NCBI RefSeq assembly: GCF_965641715.1
Contig: NZ_OZ282453.1
DNA: 64,000 bases
Direction: 5' to 3' (one strand)
Source of the DNA: Escherichia coli
Lineage (GTDB): Bacteria; Pseudomonadota; Gammaproteobacteria; Enterobacterales; Enterobacteriaceae
Shown here: in pieces, positions 50,711 through 60,478 of the stretch
How positions within the stretch are numbered: the first letter of the stretch is position 1
How the letters are laid out: each line of letters begins with the position of its first letter
Position numbers and translations under genes: made by a program
The notes under the pieces: model-generated
The model's database searches: none
Told to the model about the DNA's origin: nothing
Seen by the model: only the letters and a program-made list of their open reading frames with translations

Positions 50711-50902
50711 TTATTGCGCGTGAATACCTGGATCTGGCAAAAAATTGCCGCGTTTGGCGTCAGACCATGCTTCGCTACCAGAAGCAGGAATGTCGCTGTA
50801 ATCAATGTCTTCGTCGGATTTATTAACCAAAGCCATGAGTTCAGCTTCTTGCTGCACATCAAGTGTGTAGAGTGTGCCCCGTTTATGTTTAACCATGCTC
50901 AT
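50711..50902 (-). CDS. Small ORF with possible antitoxin-like motif (weak)
   Basis: 63 aa; DEDIDYSDIP ... WSDAKRG is reminiscent of BrnA-like antitoxins; no partner toxin seen. Confidence 0.2.
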   Translation of the reverse strand: MSMVKHKRGTLYTLDVQQEAELMALVNKSDEDIDYSDIPASGSEAWSDAKRGNFLPDPGIHAQ

Positions 50903-50941: not shown

Positions 50942-51943
50942 TTATTTCAGCCATCCAGGCACGTTATATTCTGAGACATTCTCAATGGAATATGCATCTC
51001 TCCTGTCAGAACCTTTCTTACACTTCAACTCATTGAACCCCCATTTACCCTCTCTATTGGAATAAAATACAGTATATTTATCAGTATTAAACCCGAAATA
51101 TCTTTCATCCGGACGTGAAATATTCAACTCTCCACATTTAACCTGACTGCGCCATTCAAAATCTATGGTGCTTTTTAAAACGTAGTACGAAATATTCTCT
51201 ACATTTTTTGAAGCAAAAACTACTAAAATAGTAGATACTATAAATGCTCCGGCAAGTATAAATAACCTATACACACTTAATTTAGTCCCCAGAGTTAAAA
51301 AAGCAAAATAGATAATAAGTTGCATCAACATGAAGAAAATCAACAAAAAAGCCATCCCTTTCCAGAAATACTCAACCCATGGTGATAGTGTGATATTTAG
51401 ATTACTCAAACTTAAAAATAAACTGGAAGAAAAACTACTTGAGAATAAATATATAATTGGTATGACAGCTAAAGTCATAGACCTAATAATCATTAATTTT
51501 TTATTATTTTTAAATTCCAACTCTAATATAATAAAAACACCTCCCAGAAAAACAAATACTGAAAAAGCACTAAAAACGTATACAGAGACACTGACTGGAA
51601 AAATATTAATTGAAAGCACAAAAAACAAAAATATAAACCATGCAATAAGTGAACACCAGGCAGCACAACTATTCAAACTGTTTTTATTACTGAACTTGAC
51701 AAAATACCCCATATATTCTGTAATGCGATTTTCTTCCACTAATGCATAAAGAAGAATACCAACAAAGCACAGAGATAAAATAATATCTTTCCACAGATAT
51801 TTATAAGGGAGAAGTATAAAACCAAGGAGTAGATAAATTAGCAGAATGACATCTAATGCCTTAGTACAAAAATATTGTTTCACTCCTTGCAAGAACCGAA
51901 CATTCTCCATATGAATCCTTCTCCAGCTATTGATGAAACTCAA
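50942..51943 (-). CDS. AT-rich polytopic membrane protein (about 6-7 TM) with about 80-aa C-terminal soluble tail; occupies the mrr slot
   Basis: 333-aa ORF with visibly low GC (AT-rich); multiple long hydrophobic segments; no motif recognised. Confidence 0.5.
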   Translation of the reverse strand: MSFINSWRRIHMENVRFLQGVKQYFCTKALDVILLIYLLLGFILLPYKYLWKDIILSLCFVGILLYALVEENRITEYMGYFVKFSNKNSLNSCAAWCSLIAWFIFLFFVLSINIFPVSVSVYVFSAFSVFVFLGGVFIILELEFKNNKKLMIIRSMTLAVIPIIYLFSSSFSSSLFLSLSNLNITLSPWVEYFWKGMAFLLIFFMLMQLIIYFAFLTLGTKLSVYRLFILAGAFIVSTILVVFASKNVENISYYVLKSTIDFEWRSQVKCGELNISRPDERYFGFNTDKYTVFYSNREGKWGFNELKCKKGSDRRDAYSIENVSEYNVPGWLK

Positions 51944-52050: not shown

Positions 52051-54483
52051 ATGGCGGAACTGAACCTAAGTAACCTGACGGAAGCAGACATCATTACCAA
52101 ATGCGTTATGCCAGCCATTCTCAATGCAGGCTGGGACAACACAACGCAAATCAGACAGGAGGTCAAACTCCGGGACGGTAAAGTCATCGTACGTGGTAAA
52201 GTTGCGGCACGCAGAACGGTAAAATCTGCTGACATCGTGCTGTACCACAAGCCAGGCATTCCCTTAGCCGTGATTGAAGCAAAAGCCAACAAACATGAAA
52301 TTGGCAAAGGGATGCAACAGGGCATTGAATATGCGCGCCTGCTGGACGTTCCTTTTGTTTTTGCCACCAATGGTGATGGCTTTATCTTCCGCGATGCCAC
52401 CGCAGCTGAAGGTGAATGCCTTGAAAAGCAAATAACGCTGGATGACTTCCCCTCCCCCGCTGAACTCTGGCAAAAATTCTGCCTCTGGAAAGGATACACA
52501 CAAGCTCAGCTTCCGGTGATTACTCAGGACTATTACGACGATGGTAGCGGTAAATCGCCTCGTTATTATCAACTTCAGGCAATCAACAAAACCATTGAAG
52601 CCGTCTCCAACGGGCAAAACCGCGTTCTGCTGGTCATGGCGACCGGAACAGGGAAAACCTATACCGCATTCCAGATCATCTGGCGCCTGTGGAAATCAAA
52701 AAATAAAAAACGCATTCTGTTCCTTGCCGATCGCAACATTCTGGTCGACCAAACCAAAAATAATGATTTCCAGCCATTTGGTACGGCAATGACCAAAGTC
52801 AGCGGACGCACCATTGATCCCGCTTATGAAATTCACCTCGCGCTCTATCAGGCTATAACTGGCCCGGAGGAAGACCAAAAAGCGTTTAAACAAGTCGCAC
52901 CAGATTTCTTCGATCTGATCGTGATCGACGAATGCCATCGCGGCAGCGCATCCGAAGACAGCGCCTGGCGAGAGATCCTTGATTATTTCAGTTCCGCCAC
53001 CCAAATTGGCTTAACCGCCACGCCAAAAGAGACGCATGAAGTCTCCAGCACGGATTACTTCGGCGATCCGGTTTACGTCTACTCGCTAAAAGAAGGGATC
53101 GAAGACGGCTTCCTCGCCCCTTATAAAGTTGTCCGTGTTGATATTGATGTTGATCTGCAAGGCTGGCGCCCAACCAAAGGGCAAACTGACTTAAACGGCG
53201 AAGTGATCGACGATCGTATCTATAACCAGAAAGATTTCGATCGCACGATGGTAATCGACGAACGCACAGAACTGGTTGCCAGAACCATTACCGACTACCT
53301 CAAGCGCACCAATCCGATGGATAAAACCATCGTCTTCTGTAACGACATCGATCATGCAGAACGTATGCGCCGCGCCCTGGTTAATCTCAACCCGGAGCAG
53401 GTGAAAAAGAACGACAAATACGTCATGAAAATCACCGGCGATGATGAAATTGGCAAAGCTCAGTTGGATAACTTCATCAACCCGAAAAAACCGTACCCGG
53501 TTATCGCGACCACTTCAGAGCTGATGACCACCGGTGTGGATGCTAAAACCTGCAAACTGGTAGTACTGGACCAGAACATCCAGTCGATGACCAAATTCAA
53601 GCAGATTATCGGTCGTGGTACACGCATCGACGAACGTTACGGCAAACTCTGGTTTACCATCCTCGACTTTAAAAAAGCCACCGAACTGTTTGCCGATGAG
53701 CGTTTCGATGGCATTCCCGAAAAAGTCATGGATACCACACCAGAGGATATCGCCGATCCAGACTCTGATTTTGAAGAGAAACTCGAAGAAATCAGCGAAC
53801 ATGTCGACGAACAGGTAACAGGCGTTGATGAACCGCCTGCGCCACCATACCAGGTTAAAGATACCGATGATGTCGGCCCACTTCCGGAAGAAGACGAGAA
53901 GAAAATCCGCAAGTTTCACGTCAACGGTGTAGCGGTGGGCGTTATTGCCCAGCGTGTTCAGTATTACGACGCCGACGGTAAACTGGTTACCGAATCCTTT
54001 AAAGATTACACTCGCAAAACACTGCTCAAAGAATATGCCTCGCTGGATGACTTTACCCGCAAGTGGCAGGACGCCGATCGCAAAGAAGCGATCATTCACG
54101 AGCTGGAGCAACAGGGGATCATCTGGGAAGTACTGGCAGAAGAAGTCGGTAAAGATCTCGACCCATTCGACATGCTTTGCCACGTAGTGTATGGTCAGCC
54201 GCCGTTAACCCGCAAAGAGCGCGCCGAGAACGTGCGCAAGCGGAACTACTTCACAAAATACTCTGAAGCAGCGCAAGCCGTGCTCGATAATCTGCTGGAT
54301 AAATACGCCGATGCGGGCGTACAGGAGATCGAAAGTATTCAGGTGCTGAAACTTAAGCCATTCGACAGCATGGGCACCTTACCGGAGATTATTAAAACCG
54401 GATTTGGCGACCGTAACGGGTATAATCAGGCGCTCAGCGAGCTGGAAAACGAAATCTACCAATTACCGCCCCGCTCTGCTTAA
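52051..54483 (+). CDS. hsdR: Type I restriction enzyme R subunit (non-EcoKI size class)
   Basis: 810 aa; PD-(D/E)xK-like N-terminus; helicase motif [14 protein letters not shown] and motif II DECHRG. Confidence 0.85.
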
Positions 54484-54549
54484 CAACTCTCTTTTGTGCC
54501 TTCTGCAACCATCATGTTGCAGAAGGCCTTGTTTTTCATGGAATACAAC

Positions 54550-56019
54550 ATGTCTATCAGCTCAGTAATCAAATCATTACAAGATATTATGCGCAAAGAT
54601 GCCGGTGTGGACGGCGATGCGCAGCGTCTCGGTCAGCTCTCCTGGCTGCTATTTTTGAAAATCTTCGATGCCCAGGAAGAGGCGCTGGAACTGGAGCAGG
54701 ATAACTATCAATATCCGATCCCACAGCGTTATTTGTGGCGCAGTTGGGCCGCCAACGCGCAGGGCATTACCGGTGATTCCCTGCTGGAATTCGTTAATGA
54801 TGATCTGTTCCCGGCGTTGAAAAACCTCACTGCGCCTATCGATAAAAACCCACGCGGCTACGTGGTAAAGCAGGCGTTCAGCGATGCCTATAACTATATG
54901 AAAAACGGTACGCTACTGCGTCAGGTGATCAACAAGCTGAACGAAATTGACTTTACCAGCGCCAGCGAACGCCATCTGTTTGGTGATATTTACGAACAGA
55001 TCCTTAAAGATCTGCAATCTGCGGGCAATGCTGGCGAATTCTATACTCCACGCGCCGTCACTCGCTTTATGGTGGATCGCGTCGATCCGAAACTCGGCGA
55101 ATCCATTATGGACCCGGCCTGCGGTACGGGCGGTTTTCTTGCCTGCGCATTTGATCATGTAAAGAACAAATACGTGAAGAGCGTCGCCGATCATCAGACG
55201 CTGCAACAACAGATCCACGGTGTTGAGAAAAAACAGCTTCCGCACCTGCTGGCGACCACCAATATGCTGCTGCACGGCATTGAAGTACCGGTACAAATTC
55301 GTCACGACAACACCCTGAACAAACCGCTTTCCTCCTGGGATGAACAACTGGATGTCATTGTTACCAACCCGCCGTTTGGTGGCACGGAAGAAGATGGTAT
55401 TGAGAAGAACTTTCCAGCAGAGATGCAAACCCGCGAAACGGCGGATTTGTTCCTGCAACTGATTGTGGAAGTACTGGCGAAAAACGGTCGCGCGGCGGTG
55501 GTATTGCCGGATGGCACACTATTTGGCGAAGGCGTTAAAACCAAAATCAAAAAGCTACTTACCGAAGAGTGCAACCTGCATACCATCGTGCGCTTACCGA
55601 ATGGTGTGTTTAACCCCTATACCGGCATTAAAACCAACCTGTTGTTCTTTACCAAAGGTCAGCCAACCAAAGAGATTTGGTTCTATGAGCATCCGTATCC
55701 GGCGGGCGTGAAAAACTACAGCAAAACCAAGCCGATGAAGTTTGAAGAGTTTCAGGCGGAGATCGACTGGTGGGGTAACGAGGCCGATGGTTTTGCCAGC
55801 CGCGTCGAGAATGAGCAAGCGTGGAAAGTCAGCATTGATGACGTGATTGCGCGTAACTTCAATCTGGATATTAAAAACCCACATCAGGCGGAAACCGTCA
55901 GCCATGATCCGGACGAACTGTTAGCGCAGTATGCAAAGCAACAGGCGGAGATCCAGACGCTGCGTAATCAACTGCGCGATATTCTCGGCGCTGCGCTGTC
56001 TGGCAAGGAGGTTAACTGA
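54550..56019 (+). CDS. hsdM: Type I restriction-modification N6-adenine methyltransferase M subunit
   Basis: Motif IV NPPFGG; SAM-binding DPACGTGGFL; start could be 54496 or 54538. Confidence 0.85.
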   Translation: MSISSVIKSLQDIMRKDAGVDGDAQRLGQLSWLLFLKIFDAQEEALELEQDNYQYPIPQRYLWRSWAANAQGITGDSLLEFVNDDLFPALKNLTAPIDKNPRGYVVKQAFSDAYNYMKNGTLLRQVINKLNEIDFTSASERHLFGDIYEQILKDLQSAGNAGEFYTPRAVTRFMVDRVDPKLGESIMDPACGTGGFLACAFDHVKNKYVKSVADHQTLQQQIHGVEKKQLPHLLATTNMLLHGIEVPVQIRHDNTLNKPLSSWDEQLDVIVTNPPFGGTEEDGIEKNFPAEMQTRETADLFLQLIVEVLAKNGRAAVVLPDGTLFGEGVKTKIKKLLTEECNLHTIVRLPNGVFNPYTGIKTNLLFFTKGQPTKEIWFYEHPYPAGVKNYSKTKPMKFEEFQAEIDWWGNEADGFASRVENEQAWKVSIDDVIARNFNLDIKNPHQAETVSHDPDELLAQYAKQQAEIQTLRNQLRDILGAALSGKEVN

Positions 56020-57776
56020 TGAGTGTGGAAAAGCTGATCGTTGATCATATGGAAACCTGGACCTCGGCGTTGCAAACCCGTTCCACCGCCGGGCGCGGCA
56101 GCTCCGGTAAGATTGATTTGTATGGTATTAAGAAATTGCGTGAGCTGATTCTGGAACTGGCGGTGCGCGGTAAACTGGTGCCGCAGGATCCGCATGATGA
56201 ACCGGCGTCGGAGCTGCTGAAGCGTAATGAAGAACGGAAAAAAGAATTAGCGCGCAATAATGGTATGAAAACCACAGCAAGCACTAATATCCATGGAAAT
56301 GAATATTATATCGATACCCCCGAAAAGTGGTCATGGATAAGACTTGGTAATTTAGCTAAATTCATCGATTACCGAGGAAAAACACCACATAAAAAAGAAA
56401 ATGGTATAAGGCTTATAACAGCAAAAAATATCAGAAAGGGCTATATTGATCTCAATCCAGAAGAGTTCATATCTGAAGAAGATTACATATCATGGATGAC
56501 AAGAGGCTTTCCTAAATGTGGTGATATTTTATTCACAACTGAAGCACCACTGGGGAATGCAGCGATTATTGATTTAGACGGAAAGTTCGCTCTTGCTCAA
56601 CGTTCTATCTGTTTTCAATGGCATACTCCAGAGATAAGCCCTTTTATGCTTATTCAAATCCTGGCGATCCCCTTCCAGTCACAACTAAGTGACAAATCTA
56701 CAGGCATGACCGCAACAGGAATAAAAGCGTCTAAGTTAAAAGAGATCCCTGTTATTTTACCACCTTACCAAGAACAAATACGTATTGTATCCAAAGTACA
56801 GGAGTTCATGTCCCTATGTGACCAACTGGAACAGCAATCCCTGACCAGTCTGGACGCACATCAGCAACTGGTTGAAACCCTGTTGGAAACACTTACAGAC
56901 AGCCAAAACGCCGAGGAACTGGCTGAAAACTGGGCGCGTATTAGCGAGCATTTCGACACCCTATTTACCACTGAAGCCAGCGTGGATGCGTTAAAACAGA
57001 CCATTCTGCAACTGGCCGTAATGGGTAAACTTGTGCCGCAGGATCCGAATGACGAACCAGCCTCTGAACTGCTCAAACGAATTGCGCAGGAAAAAGCTCA
57101 ACTGGTGAAAGAAGGGAAAATAAAAAAACAAAAACCGTTGCCGCCAATTAGCGATGAGGAAAAGCCGTTTGAACTGCCGGAAGGTTGGGAGTGGTGTCGA
57201 TTGGGTTCTATTTATAATTTTTTAAATGGATATGCCTTTAAAAGTGAGTGGTTTACCTCTGTCGGTTTACGTTTATTGCGGAATGCTAACATTGCTCATG
57301 GAGTTACCAATTGGAAAGATGTTGTACATATACCAAATGACATGATATCCGATTTTGAAAATTATATTTTGTCAGAAAATGATATTGTTATTTCATTAGA
57401 CAGACCAATTATTAATACCGGGTTAAAATATGCTATCATTAGCAAATCAGATTTACCCTGTTTACTGCTCCAACGAGTAGCAAAATTTAAAAATTATGCA
57501 AACACTGTGTCTAACTCCTTCTTGACAATATGGTTGCAATCTTATTTCTTCATAAATTCAATTGATCCTGGAAGAAGTAATGGAGTTCCACATATATCTA
57601 CGAAACAGTTAGAGATGACACTATTTCCTCTTCTACCGCAAAGTGAACAAGATCGTATTATTTCAAAAACGGATGAATTAATACAAACCTGTAATAAACT
57701 GAAATATATTATCAAAACCGCCAAACAAACCCAACTGCACCTTGCAGACGCACTGACTGACGCAGCGATAAACTAA
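56019..57776 (+). CDS. hsdS: Type I restriction-modification specificity subunit with two AT-rich target-recognition domains
   Basis: 585 aa; duplicated conserved spacer (ELAVRGKLVPQDPHDEPASELLKR and LAVMGKLVPQDPNDEPASELLKR) flanking low-GC variable regions. Confidence 0.8.
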   Translation: MSVEKLIVDHMETWTSALQTRSTAGRGSSGKIDLYGIKKLRELILELAVRGKLVPQDPHDEPASELLKRNEERKKELARNNGMKTTASTNIHGNEYYIDTPEKWSWIRLGNLAKFIDYRGKTPHKKENGIRLITAKNIRKGYIDLNPEEFISEEDYISWMTRGFPKCGDILFTTEAPLGNAAIIDLDGKFALAQRSICFQWHTPEISPFMLIQILAIPFQSQLSDKSTGMTATGIKASKLKEIPVILPPYQEQIRIVSKVQEFMSLCDQLEQQSLTSLDAHQQLVETLLETLTDSQNAEELAENWARISEHFDTLFTTEASVDALKQTILQLAVMGKLVPQDPNDEPASELLKRIAQEKAQLVKEGKIKKQKPLPPISDEEKPFELPEGWEWCRLGSIYNFLNGYAFKSEWFTSVGLRLLRNANIAHGVTNWKDVVHIPNDMISDFENYILSENDIVISLDRPIINTGLKYAIISKSDLPCLLLQRVAKFKNYANTVSNSFLTIWLQSYFFINSIDPGRSNGVPHISTKQLEMTLFPLLPQSEQDRIISKTDELIQTCNKLKYIIKTAKQTQLHLADALTDAAIN

Positions 57777-57996
57777 TTCCCTCGCCCTCAAAAAACCAAT
57801 AAAGCGGCTAAATAGCCGCTTTATTCACATCACCAAAAATTATATTTCACGCTAAACTTCATCTTATTTTCATTAATTTTTAGCTGGACTTCCCCTGTAT
57901 TTACTGATGATATATCCAGGTATTTAGCGCGGTGCGGATGTGCGCCAACACACCCGCACCGCTAATCACAATCCCTATTTCTAAGGAATAGTAATC

Positions 57997-58338
57997 ATGA
58001 CTGACACGCATTCTATTGCACAACCGTTCGAAGCAGAAGTCTCCCCGGCAAATAACCGTCAATTAACCGTGAGTTATGCGAGCCGCTACCCGGATTACAG
58101 CCGTATTCCCGCCATCACCCTGAAAGGTCAGTGGCTGGAAGCCGCCGGTTTTGCCACTGGCACGGCGGTAGATGTCAAAGTGATGGAAGGCTGTATTGTC
58201 CTCACCGCCCAACCCGCCGCCGCCGAAGAGAGCGAACTGATGCAGTCACTACGCCAGGTGTGCAAACTGTCGGCGCGTAAACAAAAGCAGGTGCGGGAAT
58301 TTATTGGGGTGATTGCGGGTAAACAGAAAGTCGCCTGA
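57997..58338 (+). CDS. symE: SOS-induced toxin-like protein SymE
   Basis: 113 aa starting [34 protein letters not shown]; matches recalled K-12 SymE; adjacent to hsdS as in K-12. Confidence 0.8.
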
Positions 58339-58384: not shown

Positions 58385-60478
58385 TTATACCAAGGCGCTC
58401 TCCATCTGTTTTTCAAATGCCTGACGAATTAATCCCATAATGTAAGGAAGTTGTGCGAGGTCACTGAAACCAATTTCCACATCACCATTACCCCAGCGCC
58501 CAACATTTGTCACATCTTTGGCAATACCTTTCGGATCGACCAGTTCATGAAACTGCATATTAAGCGACAATCGCAGTCGGCTTTTTTGCGGCACAACATC
58601 AACAAAATTCGTTTCCGCTTTAAACGCAATATATAGCTTCAATACTTCCTGCGTGATCCCTGCGTCCAGGCGCATAACTTCATCGCGAAGATGATCGAAT
58701 AACACCCGGCTATGCGAACCATCAGCAAGAAAAGGATAATCACTCAGGCTGTAACTGGTTTTGTTTTCAGGCTGTCCCCGATAAACAGCTAAAACCTCTT
58801 CAGGAAGAGAAGGCGCTTGCCAGACCTGAACCGCGAGATCGGCCAGACGATCGGCTCGGGCGTGAATGGCGGCTTCATCCCATTTTTCGCACTGTCCAAG
58901 ACCGATATTCAAATAGAGCGGGCTATGCTTAAAGCCGTCTTCAATATCGCGTTTTTCTGCGAAAGGTCTGTCACTGTAACGGGAGTTATAGCGCGTTAAA
59001 GTGAGATTCCCCAACGTATGCAACAGTTCTTTATGAATACGCTGCCAGTCGCTTCCCAGCTCTTCGCGCCATTTAGCCGACAAATTTTCGTTCTGCGGCA
59101 TAATATGTTCAATCGTAAACTCTTCCACGCGCTCTCTGCGTTTATCGTTTTCCAGTCGTCGTAACCAGTAGCTGCGACTACGGAAGTTATAGAGATCGCG
59201 AACTTTTAATTCCCGTTTAAATTCATCATCGTTGGGGAAACGACGATATGAAGGTAGATTCAAAAAATGTACCTGAATACTTTCCAGATAATTTTCTTTA
59301 TTAATAACTTTATAAAAAGTGGCAAATGTCTTGTTCAAAGAATTTGTCGGAATTGCACATACTGCACGGCGGAAAACATAAGATTCAATTAAACGAATTA
59401 TGCTCAGGAAATCTTCGTGAGACAAAACGCCATTTTTATAGTCATGATAAAGCGCCAGTAAGAAAGGATACACCACATCGACCTTTAACTCGCGCAAATC
59501 CTGAAAAGCCGTAGCAAGCAATTTGTCACTTTCTTTTCCCAATGCCATTGCACAGTAATACTCCGCGTAGATATGAATATCTTCAACCAGCCGATCTACG
59601 CCTTTTTCAGCAACACTCTGGCTGCGGGCATGGAGTTTAAATGCCTCATAGACTTCATCTGTCCGAGGGATCTCCCCCGTTTTTACCGTCAGATAATGAC
59701 GCATAAAACTGTCAAAATATTCGCTGTAACCTTGCTGACCAAAGGCGACTTCCATTGGACGCCAGTGATCTTCATACAACCGGGTTTGATGCTCTGGTTC
59801 GAGGCCCATCAGAATAAAATTGCGCACCAGATCGGCCTGACTTAACGCCTTACCGGTGGAGTTCATACTTTCAAAAATCAGTTGCGGATTATCCTGACCA
59901 CGATTAAGCGCCACATCGACAATTAATAACTTTGCTAACCCACGACATAAGGGGATCAAGTCATCACCGAGTTTGGCAATTTGTTCATCAAAGAAAGTAA
60001 AGTTTTCCATTATTCGATGGGAATAGTTTTCTGGCATTGGTCTTTGTTTTATTAACGCCAGTAAACTGTCTTTATCAGTCTCGGTCAGCAGTAATTTAAA
60101 ACCTTTCTCGCCGGACTCATAAGGATTGAGCAAATAATAATTACGCAATTTCATTGCCGAAAAGCCATCAAAAACTTCGTCTTCGCCAAGATGGCGCGAT
60201 AAAGCCTCAATCAGCAACATTGCGGTCGTCAGCCGCTGCTGACCATCAATGACCAGCAACGGAGAAATACCAGAAACCTGATACAATCCCTGCTCTATAT
60301 AAACAACCGAACCGATAAAATGCGCTGATATATCGTCACGCTTTCCTGCACGAATGATGTCGTCCCAAAGTTGCCGACATTGTTGCCCGGTCCATGAATA
60401 AGTCCGTTGATAAATGGGAATAACAAACTGCTGCGAACGTTTTAAAAAATCGAGTAGGCGAGCTTCTGTAGCTTTCAT
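58385..60478 (-). CDS. GmrSD-family type IV (modification-dependent) restriction endonuclease candidate (DUF262 plus DUF1524)
   Basis: 697 aa; N-terminal DUF262 motifs (IPIYQRTYSW, DGQQRLTT); C-terminal His-Me finger-like TIEHIMPQ. Confidence 0.65.
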   Translation of the reverse strand: MKATEARLLDFLKRSQQFVIPIYQRTYSWTGQQCRQLWDDIIRAGKRDDISAHFIGSVVYIEQGLYQVSGISPLLVIDGQQRLTTAMLLIEALSRHLGEDEVFDGFSAMKLRNYYLLNPYESGEKGFKLLLTETDKDSLLALIKQRPMPENYSHRIMENFTFFDEQIAKLGDDLIPLCRGLAKLLIVDVALNRGQDNPQLIFESMNSTGKALSQADLVRNFILMGLEPEHQTRLYEDHWRPMEVAFGQQGYSEYFDSFMRHYLTVKTGEIPRTDEVYEAFKLHARSQSVAEKGVDRLVEDIHIYAEYYCAMALGKESDKLLATAFQDLRELKVDVVYPFLLALYHDYKNGVLSHEDFLSIIRLIESYVFRRAVCAIPTNSLNKTFATFYKVINKENYLESIQVHFLNLPSYRRFPNDDEFKRELKVRDLYNFRSRSYWLRRLENDKRRERVEEFTIEHIMPQNENLSAKWREELGSDWQRIHKELLHTLGNLTLTRYNSRYSDRPFAEKRDIEDGFKHSPLYLNIGLGQCEKWDEAAIHARADRLADLAVQVWQAPSLPEEVLAVYRGQPENKTSYSLSDYPFLADGSHSRVLFDHLRDEVMRLDAGITQEVLKLYIAFKAETNFVDVVPQKSRLRLSLNMQFHELVDPKGIAKDVTNVGRWGNGDVEIGFSDLAQLPYIMGLIRQAFEKQMESALV

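Follow-up and report, generated by a model that had tools for sequence, protein, structure and literature searches.

An intact type IB restriction-modification operon with a mosaic hsdS in the immigration control region of Escherichia coli

In the Escherichia coli DNA analysed here (a window of 64,000 nt from contig NZ_OZ282453.1), the genes hsdR, hsdM and hsdS occupy positions 52051-57776, within the immigration control region, with yjiA on one side and symE/yjiS/yjiR on the other. As is typical of that region, yjiA lies upstream and symE, a YjiS-like ORF and yjiR lie downstream, and the gene order btsT-yjiX-yjiA ... hsdRMS-symR/symE ... yjiR is the same in K-12. The ORF list agreed with the sizes given in a previous sequence-only reading of this DNA (810 aa for HsdR and 585 aa for HsdS). 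For hsdM, the mechanically called ORF starts at a GTG at 54496, and the ATG at 54550 was adopted from the annotation of RefSeq relatives, giving 489 aa. The hsdS ATG overlaps the hsdM stop codon by 1 nt (TGATG) and has an AGGAGG upstream. Very likely, the three genes make up an intact chromosomal restriction-modification (R-M) operon of type IB (EcoAI family) with a mosaic hsdS, the allelic counterpart of the type IA EcoKI genes in K-12. The genes and two hairpins are as follows:

52051..54483, + strand: hsdR, 810 aa, restriction/translocase subunit of type IB (EcoAI family), from the ORF, profiles and identity to CFT073
54550..56019, + strand: hsdM, 489 aa, N6-adenine methyltransferase subunit, from Pfam, PADLOC and motifs
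56019..57776, + strand: hsdS, 585 aa, specificity subunit, from the ORF, two Pfam Methylase_S domains, PADLOC and AF2/Foldseek
54498..54527, + strand: terminator-like hairpin between hsdR and hsdM, 12-bp stem followed by a T-run, from the consensus scan; putative function
57798..57825, no strand assigned: terminator-like hairpin 3' of hsdS with flanking A-run and T-run, possibly bidirectional, from the scan and the sequence; putative function

Consensus scans for promoters and terminators performed no better than chance (11 hits vs 9.4±3.3 in shuffled sequences). Such elements were therefore dropped as evidence for operon structure, and the two hairpins are listed as observations.

HsdR contains the Pfam domains HSDR_N, ResIII, Helicase_C and EcoEI_R_C, and its nuclease and helicase motifs could be read from the translation:

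52231..52284, + strand: PD-(D/E)xK nuclease motif of HsdR, D61 ... E76-A-K78
52639..52659, + strand: helicase motif I of HsdR, ATGTGKT, aa 197-203
52927..52938, + strand: helicase motif II of HsdR, DECH, aa 293-296
53602..53625, + strand: helicase motif VI of HsdR, QIIGRGTR, aa 518-525
53992..54459, + strand: EcoEI_R_C C-terminal domain of HsdR, aa 648-803 (PF08463, E 5.9e-37, profile positions 1-163/163)

The nuclease triad D61/E76/K78, which corresponds to the catalytic positions in the HsdR of EcoAI, is complete. Helicase motifs I and II had previously been described as intact, which they are, and motifs III and VI are likewise intact. In HsdM, the domains HsdM_N and N6_Mtase (8e-94) and the PADLOC MTase_I profile were found, with the AdoMet motif DPACGTGGF at 55111-55137 and the catalytic NPPF at 55366-55377. 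The locus thus has the parts of a type I system, namely an R subunit with PD-(D/E)xK and SF2 motifs, a gamma-class N6-adenine methyltransferase with NPPF and an S subunit with two target-recognition domains (TRDs).

The sequence-only reading had proposed type IB (EcoAI-like) rather than type IA, and this proposal is well supported. HsdR matches the EcoAI/FtnUII equivalog for subunit R (NCBIfam NF046051) with 1192 bits against a cut-off of 550, and the combination of EcoEI_R_C with an HsdR of ~810 aa is the type IB architecture. Among the enterobacterial IB members compared, HsdR and HsdM are >90% identical (PMC2481252); here, they are 99.4% (five amino-acid differences) and 99.8% identical to their counterparts in EcoCFTI of CFT073. 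The strictest criterion for the family is genetic complementation and antibody cross-reactivity with EcoAI subunits (PMC2481252, PMC3874165). At the level of sequence, both the family assignment and the intact state of the motifs are established.

We also considered that the locus might be of type IA or IC, with an hsdR cut down to 810 aa by truncation, as HsdR is 360 aa shorter than that of EcoKI (1170 aa) and the two have the helicase core in common. There is practically no chance that this is the case. HsdR covers the EcoAI-family equivalog from end to end (1-768/768) and the PADLOC REase_I profile PDLC03049 in full length (1-807/807), whereas its score with the 1123-position type I endonuclease equivalog PRK11448 is 217 bits, below the cut-off of 729. 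HsdR and HsdM are only 28% and 29% identical to the EcoKI subunits, and the functional system of CFT073 has the same 810-aa HsdR. The truncated type IA or IC HsdR was refuted on these grounds, and the EcoAI-family assignment is retained.

HsdS matches the PADLOC Specificity_I profile PDLC03179 over 1-589/589, and its AF2 model (pLDDT 88.5, pTM 0.76) has long helices at 250-293 and 541-584 and two globular TRDs; the best Foldseek matches were solved S subunits (5ybb_D, 1yf2, 3okg, 2y7c and 7bst). The domain order of IB HsdS is D2-S1-D1-S2 (PMC3874165). The three conserved regions, the AF2 model and a repeat at aa 44-70 and 329-355 (expected at ~50 and 325) all conform to this order, which the N-terminal region, the central region and the C-terminal helix would provide as a common framework for the TRDs. 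The parts of hsdS are:

56019..56229, + strand: N-terminal conserved region, aa 1-70, comprising the tail of dimerisation domain D2 and a linker; E. coli IB alleles are 96-100% identical here
56148..56229, + strand: direct repeat copy 1, aa 44-70, from nucleotide alignment, shuffle test and AF2 model
56230..56815, + strand: TRD1 cassette, aa ~71-266, 37.7% GC, from allele comparison
56816..57194, + strand: central conserved region with the long coiled-coil helix D1, a small helical insert, the repeat and a linker, from alignments and AF2
57003..57084, + strand: direct repeat copy 2, aa 329-355, from nucleotide alignment, shuffle test and AF2 model
57195..57720, + strand: TRD2 cassette of EcoAI/EcoCFTI type, aa ~393-567, 31.6% GC, predicted half-site GTCA, from allele comparison
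57721..57776, + strand: C-terminal conserved end, the end of the long D2 helix, from alignments and AF2

A duplicated conserved element had been noticed at about 56150-56225 and 57010-57085. It is real, and its exact extent is 56148-56229 and 57003-57084, the two 82-nt copies matching at 65 of 82 positions (79%); in 100 shuffles of hsdS, the mean was 40.5 (sd 1.3, maximum 45). In the protein, the copies read ILELAVRGKLVPQDPHDEPASELLKR and ILQLAVMGKLVPQDPNDEPASELLKR, identical at 23 of 26 residues. The same reading had taken the repeat for the spacer itself, which does not agree with the AF2 model: for copy 1, a helix at 35-49 is followed by an extended stretch at 50-62, after which the helix 63-81 begins, and the element is distinct from the spacer-setting coiled coil. 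Each 26-aa copy comprises, in the model, the last part of a short helix and the extended GKLVPQDPxDEPAS linker in front of its TRD. A direct repeat has already been described as typical of type IB HsdS (PMC2481252); hence the one found here is a family-typical feature and not a new observation.

Since a single gene holds two 82-nt direct repeats, they might be thought to drive phase-variable switching of specificity within one lineage, by inversion or slipped-strand events. The probability of this is close to zero. Because the repeats are direct, recombination between them would delete TRD1 and not invert it. A second hsdS copy was absent, and neither the ORF lists nor annotated relatives showed a recombinase; the best inverted repeat was 24 nt at 75%, and the sole simple-sequence tract was a 19-nt hexamer run in hsdR. 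Studied E. coli hsd systems of this kind have been described as non-phase-variable (PMC8287963). The locus had neither the multiple hsdS genes, inverted repeats and recombinase of phase-variable type I systems nor tracts in hsdS or hsdM, and phase variation was rejected with both the repeat and the tract scans negative. The repeat and the remaining conserved framework would supply homology for recombination, by which TRD cassettes would be reassorted among alleles.

Comparison of alleles supports such reassortment. TRD1 is 100% identical to that of the E. coli EC42405 and 06-00048 alleles, and TRD2 is 100% identical to that of CFT073 and 99% identical to that of the protein named EcoAI specificity subunit in UniRef, while the TRD not shared in each comparison (TRD2 with EC42405 and 06-00048, TRD1 with CFT073) is only 6-40% identical, the range for the whole TRD1 cassette against CFT073 being 6-43%. 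Of 5426 complete E. coli genomes, only two have the TRD1 cassette. It is paired with five other TRD2 types (six counting the window allele) and TRD2 with six other TRD1 types (seven with the window allele). The previous suggestion of TRD shuffling by recombination at the conserved repeats is supported as to the shuffling, with the correction that, in the allele alignments, exchange breakpoints were heterogeneous and the repeat was not always the site. Judged from these alignments, hsdS is a mosaic of two already-circulating recognition modules on a conserved framework, and the network of reassortment around it is evident.

The combination of TRD1 with TRD2 was found in 0 of 5,426 complete E. 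coli genomes, of which roughly 987 have an IB hsdS. The exact HsdS protein is already in NCBI (UPI000DA55D85), and assemblies GCA_021646925.1 and GCA_018683545.1 are examples of genomes that encode it; identical HsdS and HsdR were found on 36-37 contigs, and HsdS is indexed in 68 blocks of the sequence collection. The exact HsdM sequence belongs to a cluster of 3491 members that bears the name type I R-M subunit M, and identical HsdM is present on at least 1000 contigs. The same TRD pairing also occurs in the enterobacterium P0138 (93%/87%), and a more distant version of it in an Algicola MAG.

Both TRD blocks are AT-rich (37.7% and 31.6% GC), compared with 49-55% in the conserved parts of hsdS and 50% in hsdR/hsdM and the window. 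An AT-rich variable segment had been reported after each copy of the repeat; copy 1 is indeed followed immediately by one, but that of copy 2 lies ~110 nt away, behind a conserved linker. The arrangement had further been described as the one expected of TRDs that were acquired or shuffled by recombination. We considered whether both TRDs came in recently from a foreign donor with AT-rich DNA, instead of being reassorted resident alleles. In its favour are the low GC content of the blocks within a gene and genome of 50% GC, the scarcity of TRD1 among complete genomes, and the closest TRD1 homologue found outside enterobacterial IB S subunits, which is from Psychrobacter (69%). In this search, TRD1 alone missed the E. 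coli self-matches, and they were returned with full-length HsdS.

The import explanation is nevertheless improbable. In Klebsiella-type IB loci, orthologues of both TRDs are 88-93% identical, a divergence similar to that of the conserved hsdS regions (88-95%), and they hold 34-41% GC while hsdRM (56%) and the N-terminal conserved region (61-63%) track the host. AT-richness is thus no mark of recent import, because the Klebsiella orthologues are likewise low in GC. Every unrelated partner TRD examined was equally AT-rich, and the E. coli cassettes are 99-100% identical across partner contexts, which fits recent intraspecies reassortment of long-standing alleles. On these sequence comparisons, a low GC content is a lasting trait of EcoAI-family TRDs. 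We put forward tentatively, as a possibility we would rate below an even chance, that the TRD cassettes of IB systems have persisted for long as trans-species polymorphisms and that TRD1 joined to the EcoAI TRD2 might read a new half-site followed by N7/8 and GTCA, a specificity of no characterised enzyme. If this is true, TRDs that stay at 32-41% GC in any host on an ameliorating framework would imply TRD-specific selection or a particular mutational or recombinational regime, and not repeated import.

EcoAI of E. coli 15T- and EcoCFTI of CFT073 are isoschizomers and represent the type IB prototype, with the target GAG(N7)GTCA, and EcoCFTI restricts plasmids carrying this sequence (PMC8287963). 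The window system shares with them the locus, the gene order, subunits of 810 and 489 aa, an HsdS framework of 96-100% identity and a TRD2 of 99-100% identity; CFT073 HsdS is identical to the UniRef-named EcoAI subunit at 587 of 589 positions. The difference lies in TRD1, which is 23% identical and unrelated beyond the common fold, and whose cassette replaces the ~35-aa linker that extends the first repeat copy in EcoAI. The C-terminal TRD of EcoAI has been assigned to GTCA by a StySKI/EcoAI hybrid, the methylation interval is 9 for EcoAI, EcoEI, CfrAI and StySKI, and hybrid S subunits have hybrid specificity, engineered IB hybrids being active (PMC3874165, interval in Table 1). Since TRD2 is of the EcoAI type, the predicted target ends in GTCA, and the 5' half-site should differ from GAG because TRD1 is unrelated to that of EcoAI. 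The target is probably 5'-[3-4 bp containing A]-N7 or N8-GTCA-3'. The GTCA half-site, the enzymatic activity and the spacer length are all inferred, and the GTCA half-site assumes that TRD specificity persists with a new partner, for which engineered IB hybrids are the precedent.

By homology with other type I enzymes, one HsdS and two HsdM would form the methyltransferase. The two TRDs would read a bipartite target, with one adenine methylated per half-site, and a distance of 9 bp between the methylated adenines would be expected, the interval of other IB enzymes. With two HsdR, the complex would become an ATP-driven translocase and nuclease that cuts unmodified DNA far from the site.

Our searches for a characterised TRD with high identity to TRD1 found none. 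A PDB sequence search returned only distant S subunits (TRD1 vs a Thermoanaerobacter S subunit, E ~1e-14), and Foldseek alignments to the latter had 18% sequence identity. TRD2 matches the EcoKI-HsdS NCBIfam model at positions 6-179; an EcoKI-like AAC specificity was rejected for it, 22% identity being at the level of the common fold. In the methylome literature, only the EcoAI/CFT073 papers were found to contain type I motifs with GTCA, no motif of the form N..GTCA or TGAC..N was listed in the supplements of a pan-methylome paper from 2026, and a literature search on strain 06-00048 gave nothing relevant to the TRD1 half-site.

A further reading is that the system, although its genes are intact in sequence, is silent or inactive in its host, for example through an incompatible TRD pair or an unexpressed operon. 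The shuffle-level result of the promoter and terminator scans and the strong hairpin between hsdR and hsdM are in line with this; three intact ORFs with catalytic motifs, and the recurrence of identical HsdM, HsdS and HsdR on the numbers of contigs given above, argue against it. The pairing in P0138 and the Algicola MAG suggests that TRD1 and TRD2 are a viable pair, and the activity of engineered IB hybrids (PMC3874165) points the same way. We consider silence unlikely, and an active enzyme remains the preferred reading.

Other known systems place the window allele further. The HsdS proteins of EC42405 (582 aa) and 06-00048 (586 aa) have a TRD1 and framework identical to those of the window, but each has another TRD2 (23-25% identity). 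In the StySKI/EcoAI hybrid and the natural type IA recombinants StySQ/StySJ, a new specificity arose from an N-terminal and a C-terminal TRD joined via the central region (PMC3874165). The engineered hybrid (CGAT N7 GTCA) has the same EcoAI C-terminal TRD as the window allele; unlike it, the latter is natural, is a node in a larger network and has an N-terminal TRD without known StySKI identity. EcoAO83I/Eco377I (type IB, GGA N8 ATGC) lies in the same immigration control region and has the same repeat at ~aa 50 and 325 (PMC2481252), but its TRDs are unlike those of the window; the TRD2 of EcoAO83I is 16% identical to that of EcoAI (PMC2481252, Table 2). EcoKI of K-12 resembles the window system in allelic position, hsdR-hsdM-hsdS order, the 1-nt hsdM/hsdS overlap and adjacent symE/symR, and differs in its HsdR of 1170 aa and its 464-aa HsdS, which has the circularly permuted order S1-D1-S2-D2 (PMC3874165).

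The window system is an ordinary intact type IB R-M system within textbook type I biology, and its allele is an uncharacterised new representative of a well-known kind. The understanding of type I systems is unaltered by it and its significance is local only. The allele is a clean natural instance of TRD reassortment. With it, the known type IB specificities would grow by one, and it would set which incoming DNA (plasmids, phages and engineered constructs) is restricted in a small carrier lineage of E. coli.

The three genes of the hsdRMS operon are all in the same orientation in the ORF list:

52051-54483, + strand: hsdR, 810 aa (ORF list)
from ATG 54550 (start as in RefSeq relatives), + strand: hsdM, 489 aa
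56019-57776, + strand: hsdS, 585 aa (ORF list)

The mechanical hsdM ORF begins upstream of this ATG, at GTG 54496, and the hsdM stop and hsdS ATG share one base (TGATG), with AGGAGG upstream of hsdS. The operon is located in the E. coli immigration control region, with btsT, yjiX and yjiA on its upstream side; downstream follow symR/symE, a GmrSD-type gene, a YjiS-like ORF and yjiR. In K-12, mrr and the genes of EcoKI (type IA) occupy the equivalent slot. A terminator-like hairpin (12-bp stem then CTTGTTTTTC; 54498-54527, +) in the 66-nt hsdR-hsdM gap, overlapping the spurious GTG start, would imply that hsdMS has its own promoter. Between hsdS and symR, a further hairpin, AATAAAGCGGCTAAATAGCCGCTTTATT (57798-57825), has an A-run before it and T-rich sequence after it and may terminate transcription in both directions. 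Directly downstream of hsdS comes symE (57997-58338, +; NCBIfam SymE, 226 bits), an arrangement shared with K-12; its 5' end overlaps the symR antisense RNA (57926-58002, -; Rfam RF01809, 93 bits). In Klebsiella-type IB loci, too, hsdS is followed by symE.

HsdR matched the whole NCBIfam equivalog for the EcoAI/FtnUII (type IB) family subunit R with 1192 bits (cut-off 550 bits) and contains Pfam EcoEI_R_C at aa 648-803, and the PADLOC type I R, M and S models were all matched full-length. PRK11448, another type I endonuclease equivalog (1123 positions), gave 217 bits for HsdR, below its cut-off of 729. HsdR and HsdM were 99.4% and 99.8% identical to those of EcoCFTI from strain CFT073, which experimentally restricts GAG(N7)GTCA, the EcoAI sequence (PMC8287963), but only 28% and 29% identical to those of EcoKI. 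Thus, a truncated type IA or IC hsdR could be rejected, and the protein sizes and type IB assignment proposed by the sequence-only reading were borne out. Besides helicase motifs I and II, which that reading had reported as intact, motifs III and VI, the nuclease triad D61/E76/K78 of HsdR and the AdoMet and NPPF motifs of HsdM are intact. Inactivity of the system is unlikely, and the sequence bears no sign of it. Type IB hsdS genes of comparable similarity were present in 987 of 5426 complete E. coli genomes (~18%), and the locus is textbook type IB biology.

Protein and DNA alignments of hsdS with three annotated E. coli alleles (CFT073, EC42405 and 06-00048) revealed two variable blocks within a framework of 93-100% identity. 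The first target-recognition domain (TRD1, 56230-56815) was 100% identical to EC42405 and 06-00048 but 6-43% to CFT073, whereas TRD2 (57195-57720) was 100% identical to CFT073 and 6-39% to the other two. CFT073 HsdS shares 587 of 589 residues with the UniRef EcoAI specificity subunit ('Type I restriction enzyme EcoAI specificity subunit'), whose C-terminal TRD was assigned to GTCA via a StySKI/EcoAI hybrid (PMC3874165). With a TRD2 of this type, the target is predicted to end in GTCA, in the form [A-containing 3-4 bp]-N7/8-GTCA. Among the 5426 complete genomes, TRD1 was found in only two, full-length TRD2 in 46 and their combination in none. The exact HsdS is already in NCBI (UPI000DA55D85; 36 contigs, 68 index blocks), annotated just as 'restriction endonuclease subunit S'.

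Region-by-region comparison of ~110 full-length IB HsdS proteins showed the window TRD2 (at least 99% identity) with six other TRD1 types, and its TRD1 with five other TRD2 types. The same pair also occurs in another enterobacterium (P0138; 93%/87% identity) and, more distantly, in an Algicola MAG (59%/63%). In the IB operon that carries the P0138 pair (L010/L011, 766-7758), the genes upstream are an Mrr_cat/NA-iREase1 gene and a BrnT/BrnA pair in place of the membrane protein ORF described below. Phase variation of hsdS was rejected: hsdS is present once, neither inverted repeats nor simple-sequence tracts of any significance occur, and the ORF lists and annotated relatives showed no recombinase gene.

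The sequence-only reading had proposed that the TRDs might have been acquired or shuffled by recombination at a conserved element occurring twice in hsdS. The element is real: a repeat search found one direct-repeat family of 82 nt (56148-56229 and 57003-57084; 79% identical, in frame), matching at 65/82 positions versus 40.5±1.3 (maximum 45) in 100 shuffles, with 23 of 26 residues identical (ILELAVRGKLVPQDPHDEPASELLKR versus ILQLAVMGKLVPQDPNDEPASELLKR), a feature known from the literature. Breakpoints, however, vary among alleles. The window TRD1 cassette begins exactly where copy 1 ends and its TRD2 cassette ~110 nt past copy 2, while in 541-aa alleles (P0196, P0233) the TRD2 cassette begins within copy 2, after GKL(V). 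Shuffling stands; crossovers are therefore not confined to the repeat, which is one of several homologous parts of the framework that serve exchange. The 541-aa proteins (P0196 from E. coli; P0232-P0239 from Raoultella) carry the window TRD1 and lack the ~44-aa PQDPNDEPAS...EGWEW linker; they represent a shorter framework variant whose spacer geometry might differ.

An AlphaFold model of HsdS based on 65 IB sequences (mean pLDDT 88.5, pTM 0.76) did not support the proposed role of the repeat as conserved spacer. Each copy forms a short helix (35-49; 319-335), an extended GKLVPQDPxDEPA and the start of the TRD-leading helix, and the spacer-setting antiparallel coiled coil is modelled as helices 250-293 and 541-584, each of 44 residues. 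The modelled arrangement fits the published IB order D2-S1-D1-S2 (PMC3874165), and the top Foldseek matches were all solved S subunits (7vs4_C, 5ybb_D, 1yf2, 3okg, EcoKI 2y7c and EcoR124I 7bst).

The matches of a TRD1-only search come from bacteria outside the enterobacterial IB group. Many of these homologues (50-70% identity), among them P0019, P0024, P0026 and P0028, are ~276-316-aa S proteins whose only TRD has IB-like conserved helices and the same GKLVPQDPNDEPAS motif on its flanks, several being exactly 316 aa and beginning MALCDQLE. They are true half-size S subunits or else have miscalled start codons.

In the place of K-12 mrr, upstream of hsdR and divergent from it, lies an ORF of 28-34% GC (50942-51943, -; likely true start giving 50942-51910, 322 aa) for a predicted multi-pass membrane protein without match in Pfam, NCBIfam or PADLOC. 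It is 97% identical in 06-00048, and since a 322-aa counterpart (41% identical) occupies the same spot before the type IB hsdR of Klebsiella-type loci L008 and L009 (918-1886), it apparently moves together with the IB cassette. Between it and yjiA is a 63-aa ORF (50711-50902, -) with no Pfam or PADLOC match, whose 06-00048 counterpart is labelled 'antitoxin' (WP_065228147.1). On the other side, 58385-60478 (-) encodes an intact 697-aa GmrSD_N, GmrSD_C and DUF5655 protein (PADLOC 'Orf5', 738 bits; HEC-06), a type IV restriction-like enzyme. This gene is also intact in L006 and L007, both with the window hsdS allele, but broken into a 387-aa GmrSD_C product and a DUF262 pseudogene in CFT073 and 06-00048, and EC42405 and assembly locus L005 have just the 387-aa product.

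The AT-rich segments noticed after each repeat copy were confirmed by GC contents of 37.7% (TRD1 block) and 31.6% (TRD2 block), where hsdR, hsdM and the window as a whole have ~50%, except that TRD2 does not directly follow copy 2. Low TRD GC is no evidence of recent import, because the Klebsiella-type orthologues of TRD1 (90% identical) and TRD2 (88%) stay at 39% and 34% GC in loci whose hsdRM has 56% and N-terminal conserved region 61-63%. Unrelated partner TRDs are equally AT-rich, and divergence between genera is similar for TRDs (87-93%) and framework (88-95%). Both the observation and the interpretation first made from this DNA were essentially correct. The findings are most simply explained by long-lived TRD alleles shared across Enterobacteriaceae, with recent reassortment in E. 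coli. The one novelty of this hsdS, which belongs to a rare E. coli lineage, is its uncharacterised TRD combination, and this probably confers a new specificity.
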